Assembly: GCA_048941265.1 (NCBI GenBank)
Contig: JBHLNT010000026.1
Span: 1 to 37,028 of the forward strand
Origin: Promethearchaeota archaeon
GTDB lineage: Archaea; Asgardarchaeota; Lokiarchaeia; Sigyniarchaeales; SOKP01
Reading direction: 5' to 3'
Length of the DNA stretch: 37,028 bases
Below, in pieces: positions 672 through 15,046 of this stretch; within the stretch, counting starts at the first letter, position 1; every line of letters starts with the position of its first letter. Position numbers and translations under genes: made by a program. The notes beneath the pieces are model-generated. The model was given only the letters and a program-made list of their open reading frames with translations. It was not told the origin of the DNA and did not search any database.

Positions 672-1799
672 GTGGATTTTAGGTTAATGGAACATAAAAA
701 TTTATCATTAGAATACGATAAGAATTTAATTAATAAAATTTTGGATGATATTAATATGAGATATATCATCCTATTTCAATACATTATTAGAAATGATTTA
801 TTTGCAGATTTAAATGATAAAAATTTAATAGAATCTTATGAAAGAATTTTAATCCTGGATGATATTTTTAAAGGAAATGTCATTAATTTTTTAGGCGAGT
901 ATCAAAATTTTATTGAAGTAGCGATAGACTTAGGATTATTTAAGAATATAAGAACTTTAAGAGAGTTTGAACAGAAAGATAATGACTTTATTTTGAAAAT
1001 GGGTGAAGAAACAATAACCATCGAAAAAAATACCATAATGACTCCTGAAGATACATTATTTCTCATGATAACTAAAAAATTTAAGTTTCTCACTAGAAGA
1101 AATTTTAACTTGGCCCTCACAAGGTTAAAAGGAGTGAGATGTGAAATATCCAGCACAATTCATTCTTTTATCTTTGAAATTGGACAAGGAGATTATACCT
1201 TAGCAGATGATCTCTACTACATTTTAGATCAATACGGAAATATTTATCAAGCAATTAAAATAGAAATAACAATTGAGGGATTCTATCAAAGATTTGAAGA
1301 GATTGCCAAAAAAGTTGATGAACTTATTGAAATATTTGATCCTGCTTTAAATAGTAAGAATATTGTTAACAATATACATAAAACAATTGAACAAAATAAA
1401 GACATTTTTGAATACCTGAAAGAACAGAAAGTAAAATTATCTGACAAGTTTAAAAGTAAGGAAGATATAAAGGATACTCAGGTTTCTAAAGAATGGAATT
1501 CTAAACTGATGCATTTATTAAAATTGAGGTTTCAAATTAAAAGTATTGATAAAAAATTATTAGAAATTAAACAATACTATTCGGGGAAAAATAAAAAATA
1601 TGGTTATTTAGAATTTATCGAAAAAGTTTCATTTAATGAAGATAACATAGTAGATGAGATACAAAACTCATTATTAGCTTTAAGAAAAGAACTTATTGAT
1701 ATTAATAATGAATTTTCAAAATTAACGAAAAAGGAGATAAAACTTCTTAATTTAGATTATGAGAGATATCTAATAACGAGCAGTGATGATGAAAAGTGA
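672..1799 (+). CDS. Hypothetical protein: putative winged-helix segment followed by long helical/coiled-coil C-terminal half (operon gene 1; ATG at 687 is an alternative start)
   Basis: 375-aa ORF. LTRRNFNLALTRLKG...FIFEIGQGDYTLADD resembles a wHTH recognition helix plus wing, and heptad-rich helices follow. Its stop overlaps the next start (GTGA, 1796-1799). Confidence 0.75.
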   Translation: MDFRLMEHKNLSLEYDKNLINKILDDINMRYIILFQYIIRNDLFADLNDKNLIESYERILILDDIFKGNVINFLGEYQNFIEVAIDLGLFKNIRTLREFEQKDNDFILKMGEETITIEKNTIMTPEDTLFLMITKKFKFLTRRNFNLALTRLKGVRCEISSTIHSFIFEIGQGDYTLADDLYYILDQYGNIYQAIKIEITIEGFYQRFEEIAKKVDELIEIFDPALNSKNIVNNIHKTIEQNKDIFEYLKEQKVKLSDKFKSKEDIKDTQVSKEWNSKLMHLLKLRFQIKSIDKKLLEIKQYYSGKNKKYGYLEFIEKVSFNEDNIVDEIQNSLLALRKELIDINNEFSKLTKKEIKLLNLDYERYLITSSDDEK

Positions 1800-2773
1800 A
1801 ATGTCCCGCATGTAATATTGAAATGGAACAGTTAGTTGCTGGAATTTATCAGTGTCCTCAATGTAAAAAAATAATGAAAGAAGAGGCTCAAGAGAAAGGA
1901 AAAGAGACACAAAAAATCGCTGAAGAAGGCCTTTTTCAAGAAGGAGAATATTTTCACAAGAGCGCTAGTTTAAATAAACAATACGAAATAGCCGAAAAGG
2001 GCATCACTATTTCAAAAACCCCAAACCGCTGGTTTTCGGTTCTAATCTGCCATAGTCCACTATTACAAAATGAAAAATATATTCGGTTATCATGGTGGAA
2101 AAAATCGTTTTATCAACATGCGGGTATGTTTAAAATTTATGATAAAGAAGTTCTTAAAAACACAATTAGAAGTTTAGAAAAAATTGACAATGGATTTGAT
2201 GATCTTTGGACCTTTCGTGGAAAATTTAGGAGAAGCAGTCCAAAGACTGAAGAACAACAGGAAAAAGAAAAGAAGTTAGATATTATTAAATATCGTATAT
2301 TAGAAAATCGAACTTGCCCGAAATGCCAGAAAAAAATGGATAAAATGAAATCCCATTATGAATGCCAACATTGTGGAGAAATTGTAATATTAGAAGGATA
2401 TAATCAACCAATTTTTAATATTGCTTCTTCTGATTTGGATATAAATTTTCAGGGAGATTTTCCTATTAACTTTTATATGCCTGTGGCGGGAATAACTGTA
2501 AAATGGTTAATGGGAGAATGGAAAGCATTAGTAGTCATATATTCGAAAGATAATCCGAATAAAAAGTGGCTTAGGTTTTATTGGTGGAATCGAGATTTAC
2601 AAAACATATTAAAATATGGACAGCGAGAAATGGGAGAAGGTACACAATTGGGGTGGAAAGTTCAAAAAGGAGTATCATCACCCAATCTTTATGATAAAAA
2701 ATTATTAAAACCATTAATTGATGCGCTTAAAAAAGTTGCTGAAGAATTAAATTGGGATATTGATAACAATTAA
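1796..2773 (+). CDS. Protein with two tandem [Zn-ribbon + PC4/YdbC-like ssDNA-binding fold] units (operon gene 2)
   Basis: Zn ribbons CPAC..CPQC and CPKC..CQHC. Each is followed by a repeat sharing GIT[IV]...W....K[YW][IL]R[LF]xWW...[IL]YDKx[VL]LKxxIxxLxK, which matches the beta-beta-beta-beta-alpha pattern of PC4-like domains. Confidence 0.7.
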   Translation: MKCPACNIEMEQLVAGIYQCPQCKKIMKEEAQEKGKETQKIAEEGLFQEGEYFHKSASLNKQYEIAEKGITISKTPNRWFSVLICHSPLLQNEKYIRLSWWKKSFYQHAGMFKIYDKEVLKNTIRSLEKIDNGFDDLWTFRGKFRRSSPKTEEQQEKEKKLDIIKYRILENRTCPKCQKKMDKMKSHYECQHCGEIVILEGYNQPIFNIASSDLDINFQGDFPINFYMPVAGITVKWLMGEWKALVVIYSKDNPNKKWLRFYWWNRDLQNILKYGQREMGEGTQLGWKVQKGVSSPNLYDKKLLKPLIDALKKVAEELNWDIDNN

Positions 2774-2793
2774 AAAATAAGTTGTTGTAAATT

Positions 2794-3936
2794 ATGATGG
2801 AGAATCAAGATCGCACATGGAAAGAATTATTAGAAGAGTTCATAAAAGGTATTGACAAAGCGATTGAAGAATTAGAAAAAAGGGATGTTGAAAATATACC
2901 AGGTGCCAAACAAGCCCTATTACAACGATTAAGTAATATGAAACTTCATTTTCCAACAAATGACGGAGAAATTTTTATAAGATCAATTAACGATAAAATT
3001 CAAAACGCGTTCTTTCCTGATACTCAAGATTTTACAGAAGCATTCGAAAAAATATTAAAATCTAGAACTCATGAACAAGATTTTATTATAAATGAATTAC
3101 TTAATGGTTTTGTTACTTCTAAAGCAAAAGCAATAGCATTAGGGACACAAGGACCAGTAATAGATCGAATGGTTGAAGCCTTTAGTAAGCGAAATGATTT
3201 TCATATTGTGGATCATCAATTTTTTGCGATGTTTGGAGATCCAAATAAACCACGTTCCTATATTAAAAAGCAACTGCAGGAATTGGTAAATATGTTTGGC
3301 TTAATCTCAAAAGAACTCGTGGTTGAAAAAGATAAAAGAACCAGTGAACGAAAAGTTTATACATTTTATACGTTTCCCGATGAGATCTTAAAAATTTTAG
3401 AAGAAAAGTACATTGAGATCGATGATGAACTTGGTCACGCGTATGTTTCGGAGGAATTTGACAGGACGGTATTTATCTGTATGTTTTTAGCAAATGTCGC
3501 AATTAATAGGGATGATCTTGAAAAAATAGGCGGCTCTTATACTATCAATGGGATATGTGCTATATTTGCTCTTGTACTACTACTAAGCTTTATGCCAAAA
3601 CTTTCTGTTGACGAGACTAATCCCATATTAAGAGATCAAACCTTCAATGAACAAAATATGAGTGTAATTCCAAAATCTTGGATGATGAAACAAGTGTTAG
3701 AGCCTTTGTTTGAGCCTCTTATTAAAGTTGTTGGCTATAGACTCGGTGGTGGCCTATGGTACTCAAAAATTATTGATAGTGAAATTAATAAAAAAATTCA
3801 TACCCAAATTCGTTTTCTCCTCCGTGATGTAAATAAATGGGTGCTTGGTCAGCTAGTGCGTGTCGAAATTCCGATCTTTGTCGAGATAGCTAATATATTC
3901 ACCGAAATTACTATAGGGACAAATGCGCAAGAATAA
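2794..3936 (+). CDS. Hypothetical protein with a putative central winged-helix domain (operon gene 3)
   Basis: 380-aa ORF. RSYIKKQLQELVNMFGLISKELVVEKDKRTSERKVYTFYTF fits a wHTH helix followed by a beta-hairpin wing. The C-terminal half is helical and hydrophobic. Confidence 0.7.
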   Translation: MMENQDRTWKELLEEFIKGIDKAIEELEKRDVENIPGAKQALLQRLSNMKLHFPTNDGEIFIRSINDKIQNAFFPDTQDFTEAFEKILKSRTHEQDFIINELLNGFVTSKAKAIALGTQGPVIDRMVEAFSKRNDFHIVDHQFFAMFGDPNKPRSYIKKQLQELVNMFGLISKELVVEKDKRTSERKVYTFYTFPDEILKILEEKYIEIDDELGHAYVSEEFDRTVFICMFLANVAINRDDLEKIGGSYTINGICAIFALVLLLSFMPKLSVDETNPILRDQTFNEQNMSVIPKSWMMKQVLEPLFEPLIKVVGYRLGGGLWYSKIIDSEINKKIHTQIRFLLRDVNKWVLGQLVRVEIPIFVEIANIFTEITIGTNAQE

Positions 3937-3948
3937 TCATAATTTAGG

Positions 3949-5247
3949 GTGGTAAAAATAAGTAGCAGAAGAGAAAAATGGACAGATTTGCTGCCAAGGT
4001 ATATGACGTTCATTAGTCATATGAGACCTATTCTTAGAGAGACCCGGAGAATTATAATGGATTTAGACGCCGATTTACTCTTAGATACAGAAGTATTAGA
4101 TAAAATTCGGCAAGAAGAAGAAAAAAGAAATATTAGGAAAGTTAGAGCACTTTCAGAGTTTTCTGCTATGTATAGGTCTAATGTGTATGAGATAATTAAA
4201 GATTTTATAGTCAAATACCGTGATAAAATTCCCATCATAGATATTAAGGATTATATTATTGACTTTCTCCATGAATCAGTTGATGCGTTAAGTATTTTAC
4301 AAAATATCACTAATCCTGATCAGAGAAATTTGGAAAAGACCTATTTATATCGTTTAACCAAATTTATTGAAGATTTAATCTTTTCAAGGGGAAACAATAT
4401 TAAACTTATCTATGAAAAATTATTAGATCATGCTCCGAAGTTTTATGAATGTCAGCGGCATCTATTAATGCCTCATACTTATTATCGTGAAAAAATCGAA
4501 AATCCTGATTTTTTTGTGATTCCTGGAATATCTCCAAGAGTGTACCAAATTATTAATAATATAACTTCTCTTTACAATTTAGATCCTAATTTTGGAAGTT
4601 TCCCTGAAAAAGAAAACTATGAAATTCCAATGATTTTAACAAATGAAGTTTTTTTACCTTATATTGATTCAATTGCTAACGCGGAAGAAGAATCTATTGA
4701 AACTATCGCAGAACGTATTGGTCTTCATATTTTGGAGGGAATTTTTTTAGCTCCACAAAAAGATTCGGTTGAAATTTTCTTGGAGCATAATTTTTTACGT
4801 GAAAATAAACAATCTGATGGTTCCATAAGACTTATACCTCAATTTAGCAATGAAACGTTAATTCTCTACTACTTAGCTTTTGCCTCATTTAGGAGGGGAT
4901 TTTTATCAAAGGAATTAATTAATTGGATTTCCATGAATTTTGCATTTTTAACGTATATGGGTATATTAAAATGGAAATTAAGCGACGAAAACATATTTTA
5001 TGCAATTTTTAAAGATTTACAAACAAATGAAAAAGTTTTACCCTATTTAATGAAATTAATCTGTTTTCCTAATTATCTGGGAATAGATAAGATGAAAATT
5101 CGAGATTCCGTCCAATATAGGAAAGAGATTTTTAATTTCATTGGCAGTCAAATTGATAATTTAAAAGACTTTATAGAAGAAATTGCAATTTACTGCGAAA
5201 CAATAGAAGAAAAAAAGAATAAATACTTTAATAATAAGAAGAAATGA
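3949..5247 (+). CDS. Hypothetical all-helical protein, possible wHTH element (operon gene 4)
   Basis: 432-aa ORF with GTG start, 12 bp after the previous gene. SVEIFLEHNFLRENKQSDGSIRLIP resembles a helix-plus-wing element. No family recognised. Confidence 0.7.
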   Translation: MVKISSRREKWTDLLPRYMTFISHMRPILRETRRIIMDLDADLLLDTEVLDKIRQEEEKRNIRKVRALSEFSAMYRSNVYEIIKDFIVKYRDKIPIIDIKDYIIDFLHESVDALSILQNITNPDQRNLEKTYLYRLTKFIEDLIFSRGNNIKLIYEKLLDHAPKFYECQRHLLMPHTYYREKIENPDFFVIPGISPRVYQIINNITSLYNLDPNFGSFPEKENYEIPMILTNEVFLPYIDSIANAEEESIETIAERIGLHILEGIFLAPQKDSVEIFLEHNFLRENKQSDGSIRLIPQFSNETLILYYLAFASFRRGFLSKELINWISMNFAFLTYMGILKWKLSDENIFYAIFKDLQTNEKVLPYLMKLICFPNYLGIDKMKIRDSVQYRKEIFNFIGSQIDNLKDFIEEIAIYCETIEEKKNKYFNNKKK

Positions 5248-5253
5248 TAAAAA

Positions 5254-6363
5254 ATGAGTAATGTAAATAATGAAAAAGAATTAAAAATAACTTATACCGA
5301 TGATGTGATTAAGGAACGTCTTAGTAAATATGGTGCGGTATATTTACCTTCAGATATCAAAGAATCTGTCGATGATATTATCGGAAATGAAGTTAAAAAA
5401 GAAATTTTAGATGATTTTTTCAAAGCTTTACTGAAATATGAACAATTTACCGAACAGCTAAAAAATTCAAAATTAACTCCAAATTTGACAGTTTTGCTGT
5501 ATGGACCTCCAGGAACAGGAAAAACTTCTTTAACAAGAGGATTTGCAAAAAAATATAATATTCCAATTTGTATTGTAGAATCCGATAGACTTGTATCTCC
5601 TCTATTGGGGGACACTATTAAAAACATTAGAGGTGTAGTAGAATTAGCTGCGGATATTGCAAAAGATAGAGGGGCTTTTGTACTTTTTTTTGACGAAATT
5701 GATGCGATTGGTTCTGAAAGATCGAACATTCATGAAGTGGGAGAAATTAAACGTGCCGTTATTTCATTTTTACAAGTTATTGATAGAGTAAATTATGAAG
5801 GTCTACCCTTGGCAATTTTTGGCGCCACTAATCATCAGCACCAATTGGATTCAGCAATATGGCGCCGTTTTACCTTTCATCTCCATTTTGATTTTCCGGA
5901 TTTTCATTTAAGAAAAAAAATTATTGAATCATTTATCAATAAAATTAAAAATGCTAAAATTGGAGTTGATGATTCAATTTTTAATCAATTAAATGATGAG
6001 TATGGAATATATCAAAAAATTTCTAAAGATTTAGATACCAAATTAGGACATAAAGTATCTGAATTTGATGATAATACATTGCGAAATGAAATTAATAAAA
6101 AACATAAAACCGGAGGATTATTAAAATTAACATATGGATATTCCGGCTCGGATATCGAAAGAGGAACTAGAGTGGCTTTATTTAAAGCAATGCACACGGA
6201 GCTTTTAACATACGACCTATTTTATAATTCATTAGAACTTGTTGGTGGAACGGCAATCCATGTTGAAAGACAAGATTTATTAAGTAACGTACGATCCTTC
6301 GAAAGAAAACAAAATCAACATCGTGTTCAAAACAGTAAATCCTCTGGACCTCCAGAAATATAA
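5254..6363 (+). CDS. Classical-clade AAA+ ATPase, single AAA module, no MIT or Cdc48 N domain (operon gene 5)
   Basis: Walker A GPPGTGKT, Walker B FFDEIDAI, second region of homology ATNHQHQLDSAIWRRF with Arg fingers, and a GYSGSDI lid motif. Confidence 0.93.
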   Translation: MSNVNNEKELKITYTDDVIKERLSKYGAVYLPSDIKESVDDIIGNEVKKEILDDFFKALLKYEQFTEQLKNSKLTPNLTVLLYGPPGTGKTSLTRGFAKKYNIPICIVESDRLVSPLLGDTIKNIRGVVELAADIAKDRGAFVLFFDEIDAIGSERSNIHEVGEIKRAVISFLQVIDRVNYEGLPLAIFGATNHQHQLDSAIWRRFTFHLHFDFPDFHLRKKIIESFINKIKNAKIGVDDSIFNQLNDEYGIYQKISKDLDTKLGHKVSEFDDNTLRNEINKKHKTGGLLKLTYGYSGSDIERGTRVALFKAMHTELLTYDLFYNSLELVGGTAIHVERQDLLSNVRSFERKQNQHRVQNSKSSGPPEI

Positions 6364-6399
6364 ATTTAATCTCTTAAAAATTATAATAAATAGATATAA

Positions 6400-7458
6400 T
6401 TGGAAAAAATGAATAAGCCTCAAATATTTGATTTAGAAAAAATTAAAGAATTAACCAATCCTATTGAAGAACTCCAAGGAAATGTGTTTGAATTCCAAAA
6501 TAACTTTACCAATTATACTAAATATAAAGAAAAAGAAATTTCAGAGCTCCCATTTAATAAAGACTTTTCAAATCAGATCCAGACTGTTACTCAAATGCTT
6601 GAAGAAATAAGCAGGAAGCTGATTAAAATTTCAAATTTAAATATCAATAAGTATCTAATTTTTCAAGATAATTTAATTAAGAAATATAAAGACTCCTTTA
6701 AGGAAAATCTTAAAAAACTGAAAATAGATCAAACGAAAACAAAGAAAATTGGAATATTTCTTATTGAAAATCGAAAAATTAGCAAAATAATTGATAAATC
6801 TTCATATATATATGCTATTGAACTAAATCAATGGCTAGATTTATTAGAATCTTTAAAATCAAATTCACTTTTTCAATCATCAATCAATCGATGTAAAAAA
6901 TTTTACAATTTATTAGTGAGAAAAAAACTCACAATGGAATTAAACAAAATTCCTGAAGATGTTGATCCTGTTTTAATCAGTGATTTCAAAAAAGCATATT
7001 TAAAAAATCCCGAATTTACGTTTAAAGAATTTCTGCAAATCATTGAAAAAAAATTAACCGAAGAAGAATTAGGTAGTCGAAGAATTATTATTGAACAAAC
7101 TAAGGAAAAAGAAAAATTAAAAGAATTAAAAAAAAAGCAAGAAGCGCAACGCCAATCATATGAAGATTACTTGCGATTGTCTGATAAGGAATTCGAAAAA
7201 ATGAGACGAAAAAAAAAAAGAAAAAAACTATCGGAGCTCACATCAAAACAAGAATTGTCAAAACAAATACAAATAAGTGAGGAAATTTCTGAAAAAATTG
7301 AAAAATTTAAGTCTAAATTTGAAAATAGTTTTGAAGAAAAGTATTTAGTGCAAAAAGATGACGATATAGATCCACTCGATATAATCAGGGAAAGAAAAAA
7401 ACAAAAAGATGAAGAATATAAAGACCATATAAAAAAATTCAAGAATGTAAAAGAATAA
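6400..7458 (+). CDS. Highly charged coiled-coil hypothetical protein (operon gene 6)
   Basis: 352-aa ORF, K/E-rich helices, basic patch KMRRKKKRKK, C-terminal DPLDIIRERKKQK. Confidence 0.72.
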   Translation: MEKMNKPQIFDLEKIKELTNPIEELQGNVFEFQNNFTNYTKYKEKEISELPFNKDFSNQIQTVTQMLEEISRKLIKISNLNINKYLIFQDNLIKKYKDSFKENLKKLKIDQTKTKKIGIFLIENRKISKIIDKSSYIYAIELNQWLDLLESLKSNSLFQSSINRCKKFYNLLVRKKLTMELNKIPEDVDPVLISDFKKAYLKNPEFTFKEFLQIIEKKLTEEELGSRRIIIEQTKEKEKLKELKKKQEAQRQSYEDYLRLSDKEFEKMRRKKKRKKLSELTSKQELSKQIQISEEISEKIEKFKSKFENSFEEKYLVQKDDDIDPLDIIRERKKQKDEEYKDHIKKFKNVKE

Positions 7459-7465
7459 GACGTGA

Positions 7466-9082
7466 TTATCCATAAGCTCAAAAGGATTTAAACTTGTAGT
7501 CGGAGATAATGAAATCTCCATTCATGATAGATTCACATTAATTCTAGGTAAATTTAAAAAAGATATTTTAGAAACAATTCAACAAGATGAGGTTTTTGAG
7601 ATTATAACAGATTATAACTTAATTCCAATTGAGAATTTTATCGCATTATTTAAAGATTCCTCCCAAAAAGATCTGAATTTAAATAAATCCATTAAATTGC
7701 TTACCATCATTAAAGATACTCAAAAGGTAATTAACATTAACTCAAACCTTATCTTGCGTTCTAAAAATCTGGTCCAGTCAGTAGTCTCTATACTTAAATA
7801 TAATTCACTACTTAAAAAAAGAGGACTTCTTGAAAAAGAAAAAAAATTATCAGAGAGTAAACAAATTTCAAGTGAACTAACAGCGAAAAAAGATTTACTA
7901 ACTAAACTAAATGAATCTTTAATAAATAACAAAAAGAAATTTAATTACACCAAAGAAGATTTTCTCTATTTAAATAACAAACGAACTCAAATTCTTAATA
8001 CTATAAATAATTATAAGGAAAAAATTCGAGAATTAAATAAGAAAAAAAAAGATTGCTTTAATGAAATTAATAAAATAACGAGATATATGAGCGATCCAAC
8101 CCAGAAAAGCAAATTAGAAGAATTAAATCTCGATTTGAGTGATAATAAATACAATTCAAAAGCCGGTGCTATTAAATCCTTACAAAAACAAGCTAAAGAA
8201 CATCAGTATGAAATCAATCAACTTAATGTAAAAATTCATGAAACGCAATTAAATTTAGACCAAATTAATCCCAGTTTTCAAACTATAGAAGCAGATTACA
8301 ATTCTTTAATTAAGATGATTGAAAATGATGAAGCAGGCATAAACAAAATTAAAACAGAATTAAAGAATGAATTAAGTAGAAATGAGGAGTTTAAAGATTT
8401 TGAGATTTCTGCTTATAACTCTTTCAAATCAAAACAGGAAATTGAAAATGAAATTACAGAAGTTTCGAATCAATTAAAGTCAATTATAGGTAAAACTACT
8501 TATATAGATCCTGACCAACCAGAAAACCTCTCGAAAATTATAAAGGAATTCACAGAAATTAATGAATCCCTATTAAAAGAAGATACTAAAGATCTTTCGA
8601 TACCTTATGAAAAAGATGAAATTATTGACTGCTTAGAAAATTTTAGAAAAGTAGAGTATTTATATGGCGATCTTGAAGAGTTATTAAATATCTTTTTGGA
8701 ACAAATTAATTTAGAAGTGAAATTTCAAACTGCTATCAGTGAAGATTTTAATAATTTCTTTATAAAGACATCTTTCTTGCGATCAACTAAAGAAAATATT
8801 AGTTTTGAAGAATTTACAACACCAGAAAAAATTTATTTCGTTTTAATATTTTCTCTATCAATAAAAATCATATTACAGACAAGATACATTATTTTTTCTA
8901 ACTTATATCTTCCAAGCGAATATAATAGAAGAGGGTCTATATATCGAACAATTTCTAAAATTTTACCTATTTTTGAGCAAGAAAAAAGCTTGAAAAACTT
9001 CAATCTCATATTTCTTATCTCAAATTTAGAAATGAAAAAAAAAATTGAAAATATAAAAGTAATAAATATTGAGGAAAATTAA
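7466..9082 (+). CDS. Short SMC/Rad50-like coiled-coil protein with degenerate ABC-ATPase head (operon gene 7); true start lies upstream of the 7697 TTG
   Basis: The frame is open from 7466, 77 codons before 7697: LSISSKGFKLVVGDNEISIHDRFTLILGKFKKDILETIQQDEV, which matches the SMC N-terminal pattern KGFK...FTxIxG. A long coiled coil follows. The C-terminus ISFEEFTTPEKIYFVLIFSLSI...YIIFSN...NLIFLISN aligns with LSGGEK / hhhhDE / hhhhTH. Confidence 0.7.
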   Translation, partial: LSISSKGFKLVVGDNEISIHDRFTLILGKFKKDILETIQQDEVFEIITDYNLIPIENFIALFKDSSQKDLNLNKSIKLLTIIKDTQKVININSNLILRSKNLVQSVVSILKYNSLLKKRGLLEKEKKLSESKQISSELTAKKDLLTKLNESLINNKKKFNYTKEDFLYLNNKRTQILNTINNYKEKIRELNKKKKDCFNEINKITRYMSDPTQKSKLEELNLDLSDNKYNSKAGAIKSLQKQAKEHQYEINQLNVKIHETQLNLDQINPSFQTIEADYNSLIKMIENDEAGINKIKTELKNELSRNEEFKDFEISAYNSFKSKQEIENEITEVSNQLKSIIGKTTYIDPDQPENLSKIIKEFTEINESLLKEDTKDLSIPYEKDEIIDCLENFRKVEYLYGDLEELLNIFLEQINLEVKFQTAISEDFNNFFIKTSFLRSTKENISFEEFTTPEKIYFVLIFSLSIKIILQTRYIIFSNLYLPSEYNRRGSIYRTISKILPIFEQEKSLKNFNLIFLISNLEMKKKIENIKVINIEEN

Positions 9083-9604
9083 GTGAGTATGATGGAAAGT
9101 TCTAAACCTGAAGATATAGTAAAAACTATATCAAAACTTATTTTGACAAACCAGCAGAAAATGATTAGAGAAGAAGATCTTAGGAATCTAAGCGAAAATT
9201 TTGATTTTGATCAAATTATAAATGAAGTTTATCTAAATCTAAATAAGATTGGTTTCGAACTAATAAAAACTAAATTTTTAGAACAGAATTACTATGTCCT
9301 CATTACTGGAGGAAAAGATGATAATATTACTCCTAGTCAATATGGCACTTTAGCCTTAATTTTGGCACTTAGTAGGGAACTTGATGAAAACGTGAAAATT
9401 GATGATTTAAAAGAAATTTTTTCAAGTATTTGGGATTCTGACATTAAATTTCTACTTGAAAATGATTATTTGCGAGAAATTAATGTAGAAGGTTTAGATA
9501 TTGTTAAAATTACCCCATTAGGGAAAGCTACTATGAAGAATATTATTCAAAATTTACAATTAAAAAACTTACTTGATATTTTTAAAGAAAGTAAATCAGA
9601 ATAA
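9083..9604 (+). CDS. Tandem winged-helix protein, KITE-like (Nse1/Nse3/ScpB/MukE-type) (operon gene 8)
   Basis: 173 aa. WH-A is FDQIINEVYLNLNKIGFELIKTKFLEQNYYVL. The linker ITPSQYGTLALI resembles the ScpB LS..ALETLAII helix. WH-B is IKFLLENDYLREINVEGLDIVKITPLG. Its GTG abuts the upstream TAA. Confidence 0.7.
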   Translation: MSMMESSKPEDIVKTISKLILTNQQKMIREEDLRNLSENFDFDQIINEVYLNLNKIGFELIKTKFLEQNYYVLITGGKDDNITPSQYGTLALILALSRELDENVKIDDLKEIFSSIWDSDIKFLLENDYLREINVEGLDIVKITPLGKATMKNIIQNLQLKNLLDIFKESKSE

Positions 9605-11157: not shown

Positions 11158-11538
11158 TTAATTGATTTGCTTTTGGAGTATTTGTTTTAATGCGTTAAAT
11201 TCATTATTCGAAATTTTTGAAATTTTAAGTAATTCAATTTTGTTAAATGGAAATTTTTGAGATTTCAAAACAAAATAAATAGCCATTGGCATTAATATCT
11301 CAAAATTTCTGAATTTACTCCCCGGATTAAAAGTACTCCAAAAATTCATGAATTTTTCGACTATCAATGTTTTCAAAGAGATTGGTAAGTTTAAACCTTT
11401 TAATATTCTATAAGTTTCAACGTTAACTCTTTCTAAAACTGATTTTTTTTTGATTTTGTAATAGTTATTTAAACTTTCCAAATTCAATACTTGATTAAAT
11501 TTATGTAGTCTTTTTTCAGTTGCCATATTTTTAACCAA
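11158..11538 (-). CDS. Short TFB-like protein with a single cyclin-fold repeat (truncated or possibly decaying paralogue)
   Basis: ILKGLNLPISLK...KFRNFEILMPMAIYFVLKSQKFPFNKIELLKISKIS parallels the TFB repeat (LNLP...RGRS...AA.AY...P.TL.EI). No Zn ribbon or second repeat. Confidence 0.55.
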   Translation of the reverse strand: MVKNMATEKRLHKFNQVLNLESLNNYYKIKKKSVLERVNVETYRILKGLNLPISLKTLIVEKFMNFWSTFNPGSKFRNFEILMPMAIYFVLKSQKFPFNKIELLKISKISNNEFNALKQILQKQIN

Positions 11539-12966: not shown

Positions 12967-13854
12967 CTATAACTTACGAACTTTATATCTATTATAATAA
13001 ATAAGATAAGCTGCTAAAATTCCACCTAGATCTGGAATATAATAAAGAACATATAATGGATAAAAAAGCGTATAAATTAAACCTGGAATTAGCCAGATTA
13101 AAATTATAATTAATAAGAAAGTTCTTCCCTTAACCCTAATTGGGATAAAGTACATCAAACCTGTCATTTTACGATTATAATAAGGAAATATGGTAAAGGA
13201 AAGGATTCCGAATATACCCCCCCACGCTAAGCCAACATAAACACCATAAGTTTCTATAGGATAATATAAATGAAATAAAAGCCGTAATAAGATATATATC
13301 ATCGCTGAAAAGAGGGCACATGATATATAAAGATTTATTAAAAATTTAGTCCCATATTGCATTTCTAAATATCTGGTCATATTATATAAAAAATACATCA
13401 TAATCATTAAGATGAATAATCCCAATAATCCACCAGAACTGATAAATAAAGCTGTAAACAAAGTATAATAAGTATAATAATATACAAGTCCTTGAAGACT
13501 AAGGAATATATAGCGCTCAAGTCCTATAAGACTAAAAATAAAAGCCACTATAGAAAAAATCACAATCATAAAAATTAAAAATTTAGTCCCTTTAAATTCT
13601 GTTTTAGATGGTCCATAAGTTCTTTGGAAAATCCTATATTCATATTGAGGTTTTTTAGGTCTTTTTAATGGTTCTTCCCGATATCTTATACTCGGTTCAC
13701 CTGAAGAGGTTGGAACAACTGAGATATGCTTTAATTCAAATGTACATTCATGATTTTCAGGTAAGCGGTGTTTTTTACAAAATGTACCTCCGCAGTATTT
13801 ACATTTGAATGGCAAATACCCTATTTCTTCTCCGCAAAATACACAAAATGGCAC
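12967..13854 (-). CDS. AN1 zinc finger fused to rhomboid-family membrane domain lacking catalytic Ser/His (pseudoprotease)
   Basis: AN1 finger CVFC...CKYC...FCKKHRLPENHEC and about 6 TM segments. The GxSG position reads GLAWGG and the AHLGG position reads PDLGG. Confidence 0.75.
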   Translation of the reverse strand: MPFCVFCGEEIGYLPFKCKYCGGTFCKKHRLPENHECTFELKHISVVPTSSGEPSIRYREEPLKRPKKPQYEYRIFQRTYGPSKTEFKGTKFLIFMIVIFSIVAFIFSLIGLERYIFLSLQGLVYYYTYYTLFTALFISSGGLLGLFILMIMMYFLYNMTRYLEMQYGTKFLINLYISCALFSAMIYILLRLLFHLYYPIETYGVYVGLAWGGIFGILSFTIFPYYNRKMTGLMYFIPIRVKGRTFLLIIILIWLIPGLIYTLFYPLYVLYYIPDLGGILAAYLIYYNRYKVRKL

Positions 13855-14032
13855 TAATTTATAACCCTATTCCTTTTTCTAAATAAGTTCTGTTTATTAG
13901 TTATATTAAAACGGCTATAATATTAAAAATATTATCCTTCTATTTTTTAGTTTTGGAATAAAATTTATTTTTTCTTATAAAAATATAGAACCATAAGTAC
14001 TTATAAAGATTATAAAAAGTTGTTGTATGAGA

Positions 14033-15046
14033 TTAACTGGCATTACCTTTCATGCTTTCGGGTACGTATAACGAGGTTTCAATTGGAGCGTAAATCAAAG
14101 AGTAAGTGATTATTAACATTAGTATTAATAAACCAGCTAAAAGAAAATATACCGATTTACTCCATTTAAAAATATTTTGCCCATCTAATATCCCAATTGG
14201 GATCATGTTAAATAAGCCTAACATAAAATTTAAAGCTGCAGCATAACCAATAAATAAATTCAGCGGAAACAAATCTTTAGGCATTCCTATAGATATAATT
14301 AATAGGATGATGCCATAAATTAAATTAACAATCGGACCAGCAGATTTACATAAACCTGTTTTGCGATCAATCTTATCTAAGCCCAAAACAACGACAGCAC
14401 CAGGCAAGGCTAATATGGGTAAGCTAACTGAATTTGAAAGTAAAGACCAAATACCTGCTATCAATCCGAAAACCGTTAATATCATACCGAAGGTAAGTAA
14501 TCGAAATTTCGTTTGAAGTCCAAAATGTTTAGCTACTTGGCGATGACCAAATTCATGAAATAGAAACGCTGTTGTATAAAATCCTGCTAATAAAAATATT
14601 GCCCAGGTTAAATTTAACCGAATTAATTGAGGATTAAAAAATACAATTAACCCTATCAAGAAAATTAAACTTGCACCAATTAATAAATGTAAAAATTCAG
14701 ATTTATATGGAAATAAAATACCCTTAAATTCAATTCCTGAGCCAGGATCGAAAGCATTCTCAGGGATGTGTCTTTCTTGTCGATACCAGTTAAAACTTCC
14801 ATCGGTAGTTCCACGTATAGTTGAATCAGCAGCTTGTTGTTCGGGATATCGCTGCTGATATGAGGGGACCTCCCTATATGTAGATTCTGGAGCTTGAATT
14901 TGTTGAGATTTTAAAGATTCTATTACAATATTGCACTCATGGTTTAATGGATCTTTATGTAATCCACAATAGTTTTGACCACATTTTTCGCAATGATAAA
15001 CCTCGTTTTGAGGAATTTCCTCTCCACAATGATAGCATAATGTCAT
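14033..15046 (-). CDS. AN1 zinc finger fused to M50 (site-2) intramembrane metalloprotease
   Basis: CYHC...CEKC...YCGLHKDPLNHEC finger, with HEFGH, AGPIVN and FNMIPIGILDG M50 motifs. Confidence 0.88.
   Translation of the reverse strand: MTLCYHCGEEIPQNEVYHCEKCGQNYCGLHKDPLNHECNIVIESLKSQQIQAPESTYREVPSYQQRYPEQQAADSTIRGTTDGSFNWYRQERHIPENAFDPGSGIEFKGILFPYKSEFLHLLIGASLIFLIGLIVFFNPQLIRLNLTWAIFLLAGFYTTAFLFHEFGHRQVAKHFGLQTKFRLLTFGMILTVFGLIAGIWSLLSNSVSLPILALPGAVVVLGLDKIDRKTGLCKSAGPIVNLIYGIILLIISIGMPKDLFPLNLFIGYAAALNFMLGLFNMIPIGILDGQNIFKWSKSVYFLLAGLLILMLIITYSLIYAPIETSLYVPESMKGNAS

Follow-up and report, generated by a model that had tools for sequence, protein, structure and literature searches.

The window analysed here, a stretch of 37,028 nucleotides from a Promethearchaeota archaeon (assembly GCA_048941265.1, contig JBHLNT010000026.1), carries at positions 672-9604 eight open reading frames (ORFs), which all lie on the forward strand and fill the span, and among which a predicted ATPase-dead relative of the SMC (structural maintenance of chromosomes) proteins, a putative kite and an intact AAA+ ATPase are found together. 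The gaps between consecutive genes, from gene 1 to gene 8, are -4, 20, 12, 6, 36, 13 and 0 nt; genes 1 and 2 overlap by GTGA (1796-1799), and the TAA of gene 7 (9080-9082) directly abuts the GTG of gene 8 (9083). Eight co-oriented and tightly packed genes with this overlap and this junction had been described in the original prediction, and the description holds with one correction, namely the start of gene 7, since the 13-nt gap between genes 6 and 7 exists only if gene 7 begins at ATA 7472. The operon is flanked by elf1 (PF05129, 1.4e-19) and by a gene with Lsm and Lsm_C matches in Pfam (SmAP3), its GC content (25-34%) does not break from that of the rest of the window (24-39%), and no integrase or transposase was matched in Pfam among the 33 window ORFs scanned. 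Both the Pfam scan and the GC content, therefore, agree with the housekeeping flanks and the uninterrupted composition that had been claimed.

Gene 7 (7472..9082, forward strand) is predicted to encode a mini-SMC of 536 aa, counted from the probable ATA, with a split head and an antiparallel coiled coil. In the fold model (pLDDT 84.3, 18-row alignment), N-terminal strands are followed by a helix at residues 72-207, a turn, a helix at 230-303 and a C-terminal alpha/beta head; the coiled coil is about 135 residues long, its arms meet at a disordered turn of about 20 residues, and no globular hinge appears in the model, the length across copies being 522-547 aa. The top Foldseek matches were Rad50 (1.2e-7), Smc (5.6e-6), LmuB, JetC, Smc5/6 and MukB, with whole-chain TM scores that are low, as expected for long rods. 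Walker A, the signature, Walker B and the CxxC zinc hook occur in none of the 18 aligned copies, and the head alignment shows LTTPEK at the signature position and IIFSN at the Walker B position. The model, the fold search and the motif loss in all 18 copies together identify gene 7 as a predicted SMC-superfamily protein without ATPase motifs, hinge or hook, as had been proposed for this locus. A VIA search with gene 7 gave generic coiled coils only, and PDB searches with the gene 7 sequence and with the profiles of genes 1, 2, 3, 4 and 8 returned nothing meaningful.

The frame of gene 7 is open from 7466, and its earliest ATG, GTG or TTG lies at 7697. When the upstream DNA was aligned, a GTGAT stretch followed by ATA was seen in the window and in four related loci (L031-L034), while in another locus (L039) GTGA is followed by ATG at a position like that of ATA 7472. 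As well, no canonical start precedes the first conserved motif in 17 of the 31 copies in which this motif was located. ATA 7472, in the stretch 7462-7474 of the window, is probably the start; a frameshift at this place, which was also considered, was dropped in favour of the ATA start after the upstream alignment. Copies of gene 5 in three loci (L037, L041 and L044) also lack a canonical start, so that ATA and ATT starts may be common in this lineage and overlooked by gene callers.

Gene 8 (9083..9604, forward strand; likely start ATG 9089) encodes a putative kite (tandem winged helix) of the Nse1/Nse3 type. A profile built from gene 8 only found no kite in the PDB. Once extended, the profile matched kites of SMC operons, including the host's, at 1.7e-7 to 2.4e-3 (4 of 29 candidates), and a mixed 22-row kite profile with nine gene 8 rows had as best PDB matches NSE3 9lwi (5e-4) and 7dg2 (1e-3). 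The Atlas leads of gene 8, MAGE (0.79) and DUF4194 (0.75), are sub-threshold, and its profile yielded 58 matches among cluster representatives. The suggestion of a KITE-like gene next to the SMC gene is thus supported by the links of the gene 8 profile to operon kites and to NSE3. In a tree of 32 kites, which has long branches and holds no eukaryotic rows, eight of the nine gene 8 rows form a clade (96/96); this clade stands beside the kites of the live clusters described below and apart from the kites of ordinary SMC5/6-like operons (84/97, unstarred). The proposed bearing of the operon on the origin of Nse1 and Nse3 is indirect, gene 8 being a fast-evolving and lineage-restricted kite.

Gene 5 (5254..6363, forward strand) encodes a single-domain AAA+ ATPase (PF00004, 1.9e-25, above the cut-off), in which Walker A, Walker B, sensor 1 and the arginine finger are invariant in 20 of 20 copies. 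The intact AAA+ ATPase that had been predicted is therefore present, and, judged by its motifs, it would be the sole intact motor among the eight proteins. Its PADLOC matches were IetA (2.3e-57) and then TRIP13 (2.3e-17).

The remaining genes are less easily assigned. Gene 1 (672..1799, forward strand; likely start ATG 687) is a conserved orphan of 370-375 aa in which one Cys/His pair is invariant and the C-terminal half is helical, and it had no match in Pfam, PADLOC, NCBIfam, PDB sequences or the Atlas; a winged helix is suspected in it. Gene 2 (1796..2773, forward strand) is a tandem repeat of a zinc ribbon and a beta/alpha domain. Its two halves align with each other (hhalign 98%, E 1.4e-13), in line with the duplication proposed earlier, and zinc-ribbon Pfam matches were found in up to 17 of 18 members; no PC4 or PUR match was found in Pfam and PDB searches, which used sequence profiles. 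Gene 3 (2794..3936, forward strand) is conserved and helical with a central winged-helix-like domain; its model (pLDDT 74.6) had no Foldseek match at E<=0.001, that is, no clear whole-protein match, which is not proof of a new fold. In a VIA search, its residues ~94-236 aligned with TFIIE-type and forkhead winged helices at a best Z of 5.0. Gene 4 (3949..5247, forward strand) is a highly conserved orphan without a PDB-sequence match, and, according to the hhalign comparison of genes 3 and 4 (E 0.0018, probability 15%), the two are probably distant paralogues. Gene 6 (6400..7458, forward strand) is helical and fast-evolving with a basic tail, and it matched no family in Pfam, PADLOC or NCBIfam. 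Its profile matched the N-terminus of one kleisin-like ORF weakly (3e-4), a match that hhalign did not reproduce (E 0.52), and its candidacy as a kleisin substitute derives only from its position. The predicted complex of genes 7, 8 and 6 (residues 1-285, partner gene 6) scored 0.62, with 0.47 for the control, which is not evidence either way. The several winged-helix proteins announced in the original prediction are thus weakly supported, the middle of gene 3 resembling winged helices at no more than Z ~4-5.

Gene order was followed through 45 loci from 45 genomes, chosen by a match to gene 3, 4 or 5. It is kept in 44 of them; all eight genes stand in order in 32 (31 of these without a gap above 250 nt), and most of the remaining loci run into the end of a contig or region or are broken by insertions. 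Compared with two congeners, gene 7 has a ratio of nonsynonymous to synonymous substitution rates (dN/dS) of 0.27-0.29 and the other seven genes have ratios of 0.04-0.16, values that indicate purifying selection on all eight. Because of the kept order, the check named in the original prediction, and of these ratios, the operon is judged to be real and conserved far beyond chance. A locus of G330 (L166:866-11586) has the order gene 2, gene 1 and a second gene-1-like gene, together with a longer gene 7 (686 aa); its gene 2-gene 1 order is that of the live cluster of G332 described below.

In a sample of 301 genomes of the phylum, gene 3 matched 72 (64 of 68 in family f1, 6 of 7 in f2, and one genome of f32) and gene 8 also 72 (63 of 68, 6 of 7, one of f32 and one marginal), while the gene 5 profile found 134 of 400 genomes at 1e-35, including 115 of 134 in f1 and 13 of 14 in f2. 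Among 41 relatives, 32 had a match to gene 4 (f1 21/24, f2 10/11, f3 0/1, f4 0/4), and the source labels of gene 5 relatives are mostly Promethearchaeota or Lokiarchaeota. The operon is present in about nine of ten genomes of the two lokiarchaeal families f1 and f2; it was not found in two other families of the same order, f3 and f4, nor in most of the remaining Asgard families searched. Genes 3, 5 and 8 were all not found in two genomes, G105 (100% complete) and G025 (92%), which fits a loss as a unit.

This distribution bears on whether the operon encodes a housekeeping chromosome machine, which would organise or segregate the chromosome, or act at stalled forks or transcription bubbles, and would have no role against foreign DNA. 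The single copy in nearly all genomes of the two families, the fixed site between elf1 and the Lsm gene, the strong purifying selection and the lack of a recognisable effector would all suit such a machine. However, the operon was not found in the complete G105, in G025, in f3 and f4 and in most of the other Asgard families searched, its genes are split in one genome (G220), the host has two other SMC operons, and the relatives of the operon lie in defence-like surroundings; a purely housekeeping role is, therefore, considered unlikely.

In G220 (L123, L088), genes 5 and 7 are each split into two ORFs, which suggests decay after insertion. Long insertions lie between genes 5 and 6 in G019 (L043:9855-16642) and G220 (L088:2124-7021), and they hold an SMC-like ATPase of 656-672 aa, small flanking genes and modification genes (PAPS reductase, glycosylase and methylase, or TGT and DUF5591). 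By their gene content, they are taken to be DNA-modification islands. A swap of genes 6-8 for another SMC-like gene in these two genomes was rejected, for genes 6-8 lie downstream behind the insertion. The same insertions could mark a border between two neighbouring modules, in which genes 1-5 would form an AAA+ remodelling unit with its own protein or nucleoprotein substrate and genes 6-8 a decayed SMC scaffold, with a shared transcript and no shared complex. The recurrence of genes 1, 3, 4 and 5 in live clusters without gene 6 and the fastest evolution of genes 6 and 7 are in keeping with this arrangement. Nevertheless, insertions also occur between genes 1 and 2, 2 and 3, and 3 and 4 in some loci, the AAA+ gene adjoins the SMC gene in all seven live clusters, and genes 3, 5 and 8 are missed jointly in the two genomes named above, which leaves two separate modules a quite improbable explanation.

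The live clusters, in which both the AAA+ and the SMC motor look intact, are relatives of the operon that the original prediction had not foreseen. An AAA+ gene lies directly upstream of an intact SMC gene in seven scattered Asgard genomes (G032, G332, G308, G289, G379, G077 and G237), and homologues of genes 1, 3 and 4 occur in three of them (G032, G332 and G308), with the gene 4 homologue directly upstream of the AAA+ gene. G032 is a closed genome, and its distant homologues of genes 1, 3, 4 and 5 were matched at 6e-12, 1e-35, 1e-14 and 9e-80 (gene 1 at 2e-10 in G332 and 1e-4 in G308). Its SMC of 1,057 aa has intact Walker A, signature and Walker B motifs and, by eye, a hinge-like middle, and it is followed by a 323-aa gene that looks by eye like a multi-winged-helix gene, an Nse4_C-like gene (E 0.0014) and a kite. 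The block (L081:2824-14848) is inverted, with a native gene 2 on one side and what is left of gene 8 on the other, and, because of these flanks, the live cluster looks like an in-place replacement of the dead-SMC operon. G332 has genes 1, 3 and 4, AAA+ and SMC in one run, as in G032, while G308, of another class, has gene 4, AAA+ and SMC, genes 3 and 1, and a kite on three short contigs; a search with the G308 gene 3 homologue in 61 genomes of that class found it in G308 alone. From the weaker or second AAA+ matches, 13 regions were fetched, of which five have an AAA+ gene before a long SMC gene (G332, G289, G379, G077 and G237), the other eight being the dead-SMC operon itself or unrelated AAA+ genes. 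The Walker A region is intact in the SMCs of the G032, G332, G308, G289, G379 and G077 clusters, and G379 carries both a live cluster and the dead-SMC operon. A pattern scan of genome contigs gave at least 31 loci with generic SMC and AAA matches, three of which were mapped and are ordinary Smc operons, and that of metagenome contigs gave at least 80 such loci.

In a quick tree search with 31 AAA domains, the gene 5 clade (SH-aLRT 97) nests with the AAA+ proteins of G032, G332, G308 and G289 (99) and those of G379 and G077 (97). By this tree, gene 5 is shown to share ancestry with the SMC-linked AAA+ genes of the live clusters.

The neighbours of the live clusters are variable. HD-domain hydrolases (PF19276, with a weak PADLOC dGTPase match) lie at L161:14887-16449 in G379 and L162:1420-3036 in G077 and could be effectors. 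In G308, the homologues of genes 3 and 1 are immediately preceded by a JAB gene and a fused E2-E1 gene (UQ_con and ThiF; L082:2750-5041). An Hsp70-like gene and, in G237, a transposase were also seen, and two genes (L162:4408-5214 in G077 and L164:9690-10325 in G237) look by eye like PD-(D/E)xK or Cas4-type nucleases and had no match in Pfam, PADLOC or NCBIfam.

In addition to the operon, the host carries a Smc-ScpA-ScpB operon (C34) and an SMC5/6-like SMC-kleisin-kite operon (C159; G000:C159:7964-13880; L090, L091). The profile of the ORF upstream of the SMC5/6-like gene had significant matches in the host genome (G000) that are all AAA+ proteins, and a Pfam AAA or AAA_lid domain was found in eight of ten family members scanned, while Walker A and B were found in none of seven; this ORF is predicted to be a degenerate, catalytically dead AAA+ protein. 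The dead AAA+ gene was found in 36 of 41 relatives, including all five of f3 and f4, and in four other Asgard families. Of 20 SMC loci that were fetched, ten show the order dead AAA+, SMC, kleisin-like gene and kite, and the rest belong to other SMC or Rad50 classes that are without it. The kite and AAA trees do not support the idea that the dead-SMC and the dead-AAA operons are halves of one recent duplication, which is kept as no more than a rival reading; a pairwise hhalign of gene 5 with the host's dead AAA+ protein was not significant. Another type of SMC-kleisin-kite operon, with no AAA+ gene upstream, was met in f21 and f24 (L210-L216), and there a gene of 440-460 aa and one of about 260 aa follow in most loci.

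It might be supposed that the two operons complement each other, the dead SMC and live AAA+ of the one pairing with the dead AAA+ and live SMC5/6-like protein of the other into mixed rings or dimers that regulate the latter. The host SMC5/6-like operon is indeed led by a degenerate AAA+ gene, and the C-terminal head of gene 7 scores best against that SMC class, with an hhalign probability of 56% (11 rows) compared with 12% (5 rows) for the SMCs of live clusters, the profiles being of unequal depth. The lowest score was that against ASRP-like heads, and pairwise hhalign of gene 7 with the G032 SMC was not significant. However, the dead-AAA operon is present where the dead-SMC operon was not found (f3 and f4, 5/5 versus 0/5, and four other families), gene 8 stands apart from the SMC5/6-like kites in the kite tree, and the dead AAA+ proteins form a clade of their own in the AAA tree. 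We consequently give such a partnership little credence.

When compared with known systems, the operon resembles an SMC-kleisin-kite complex in the split ABC head on an antiparallel coiled coil (gene 7) and in the kite (gene 8), whereas gene 7 is without Walker A, signature, Walker B or hinge; lacking these ATPase and hinge features, the operon appears not to encode a working SMC complex of a known kind, yet to descend from one. Wadjet (JetABCD) and Lamassu (LmuABC), which are SMC-based systems against plasmids and phages, likewise pair a sensor of the SMC fold with a partner that is kite-like or small; the top folds of gene 7 include LmuB and JetC, and the live relatives of the operon are similarly patchy with variable neighbours. 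In contrast, gene 7 has no ATPase motifs, and the operon has a separate AAA+ motor. PADLOC gave a weak coiled-coil JetC match (3e-4) and no JetA, JetB, JetD, LmuA or LmuC among the eight genes, and neither the JetD Toprim nuclease nor the LmuA effector was matched in the sequence libraries of PADLOC, Pfam and NCBIfam. IetAS consists of an AAA+ ATPase and an S8 protease, IetA restraining its partner, while TRIP13 resets HORMA complexes and TRIP13/Cap6 is the AAA+ protein of CBASS. Gene 5 is like these in its best library matches, IetA and then TRIP13; it differs from IetA in scoring 172 bits against the NCBIfam IteA profile, with a cut-off of 510, and no S8 protease, HORMA or cyclase was matched among the eight genes in Pfam or PADLOC.

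According to the main text of van Hooff et al. (10.1101/2024.01.07.573240), archaea have SMC5/6-related SMC-kleisin-kite operons, and some Asgard archaea have a third kite, which is accompanied by an SMC and a kleisin of its own. The present operon is similar to those operons, as far as that text describes them, in that an SMC-family gene adjoins an Nse1/Nse3-type kite and a third kite occurs beside two SMC operons; it is different in that its SMC has neither ATPase motifs nor a hinge, the searches found no kleisin, and AAA+ and five more genes are attached. The words 'AAA' and 'inactive' have no occurrence in that main text, and its supplement may list the operon or the live clusters. The ASRP family (ClsN, Sph) is defined, in the part of Yoshinaga et al. 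(PMC9389158) that was available, by Walker motifs and a zinc hook; like ASRP and Rad50, gene 7 is a short, hingeless archaeal SMC-superfamily protein, and unlike them, as that part presents them, it has neither Walker motifs nor a zinc hook in 18 of 18 copies. Moreover, Wadjet has been reported in one lokiarchaeal strain, without the gene set of the operon in the portion of the source at hand (10.64898/2026.02.13.705702). No description of the operon was found in the open (non-subscription) literature searched, and no PADLOC system matches the gene set, in agreement with the earlier statement that no described system has this composition. Apparently, the operon is an unpublished derivative of SMC5/6-related kite complexes.

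The reading that we favour, tentatively and somewhat short of probable, is that the operon encodes a fixed, AAA+-driven DNA-surveillance scaffold which arose from a defence-like SMC system, its function being deduced from gene content. The eight genes would encode one DNA-associated machine. Its ancestor may have been a patchy Asgard system with an AAA+ protein, an intact SMC5/6-related SMC, a kleisin, a kite and three accessory proteins, and the hinge and ATP sites of the SMC would have been lost in the ancestor of the two lokiarchaeal families, leaving the SMC as a rigid rod. Loop extrusion depends on an ATP cycle that a dead SMC without a hinge cannot run, so that no extrusion would be expected from gene 7. 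Instead, a static scaffold that binds DNA may be made up of the rod (gene 7), the kite (gene 8) and probably gene 6; genes 1, 3 and 4 may form a winged-helix module for DNA binding and for docking of the AAA+ ring, and gene 2 may add affinity for single-stranded nucleic acid. The gene 5 hexamer would be the only energy source and could build or strip the complex, as is known from TRIP13 and IetA. The most likely task of the machine would be genome surveillance, with foreign or abnormal DNA recognised and held in the manner of Smc5/6, and not the routine segregation of chromosomes, a task that the host's Smc-ScpAB and SMC5/6-like operons cover.

In favour of this reading are the nesting of gene 5 among AAA+ genes that precede intact SMC genes, the runs of genes 1, 3 and 4, AAA+ and SMC in G032 and G332, the place of the G032 live cluster at the site of the operon, the neighbours of the live clusters, the DNA-modification islands in G019 and G220, the host's two other SMC-kleisin-kite operons and the joint absence of matches to genes 3, 5 and 8 in G105 and G025. 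Several observations weigh against this scaffold reading. No nuclease or other effector is recognisable in the operon, a defence system would not usually be kept as a single copy at a housekeeping locus in nearly all genomes, as this operon is in its two families, and no kleisin was identified among the eight genes by sequence profile searches. By profile and hhalign comparison, the live clusters contain nothing that corresponds to gene 6, and the divergent neighbours in G379, G077 and G237 showed no significant homology to genes 1, 3 and 4. The AAA tree was built without bootstrap, and it leaves the AAA+ protein of G237 out of the gene 5 clade. In addition, gene 7 may have an origin different from that of the AAA+ gene, since its head scores better against the ordinary SMC5/6-like class than against the live-cluster SMCs, a result that conflicts with the kite and AAA+ trees on the parent of gene 7.

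In a wider and rather less likely scheme, though one that we still consider possible, Asgard archaea would have an undescribed class of SMC systems with an AAA+ ring as a core subunit, which occurs in three states: both ATPases live (mobile and defence-like), AAA+ dead (the ordinary SMC5/6-like operon), or SMC dead (the present operon). The present operon would then be a domesticated defence system that draws its power from the AAA+ ring instead of the SMC head and runs with no ATP hydrolysis by the SMC. To our knowledge, every characterised SMC complex is driven by its own ABC heads, and a conserved complex that joins a dead SMC to an AAA+ motor of its own would show that the SMC-kite scaffold is able to work in another way. 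The live form behind the same AAA+ clade, with its intact hinged SMC, kleisin-like gene and kite, would give the ancestry of the operon, and it offers a direct comparison of the same accessory genes with and without an SMC ATPase in close relatives of cultured lokiarchaea. Eukaryotic Smc5/6 restricts viral DNA, and as the operons are its archaeal kin, they would bear on whether Smc5/6 arose as a defence machine and on what served to load or unload it.

Finally, two further features were noted in the window downstream of the operon. At 12967-15046, Pfam identified two adjoining AN1 zinc-finger genes, of which one also encodes a fused M50 peptidase domain, and similar AN1 gene pairs occur downstream of the Lsm gene in relatives. 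As well, an orphan ORF of 126 aa without a Pfam match lies at 11158-11538 and is shared with a related locus (L031).

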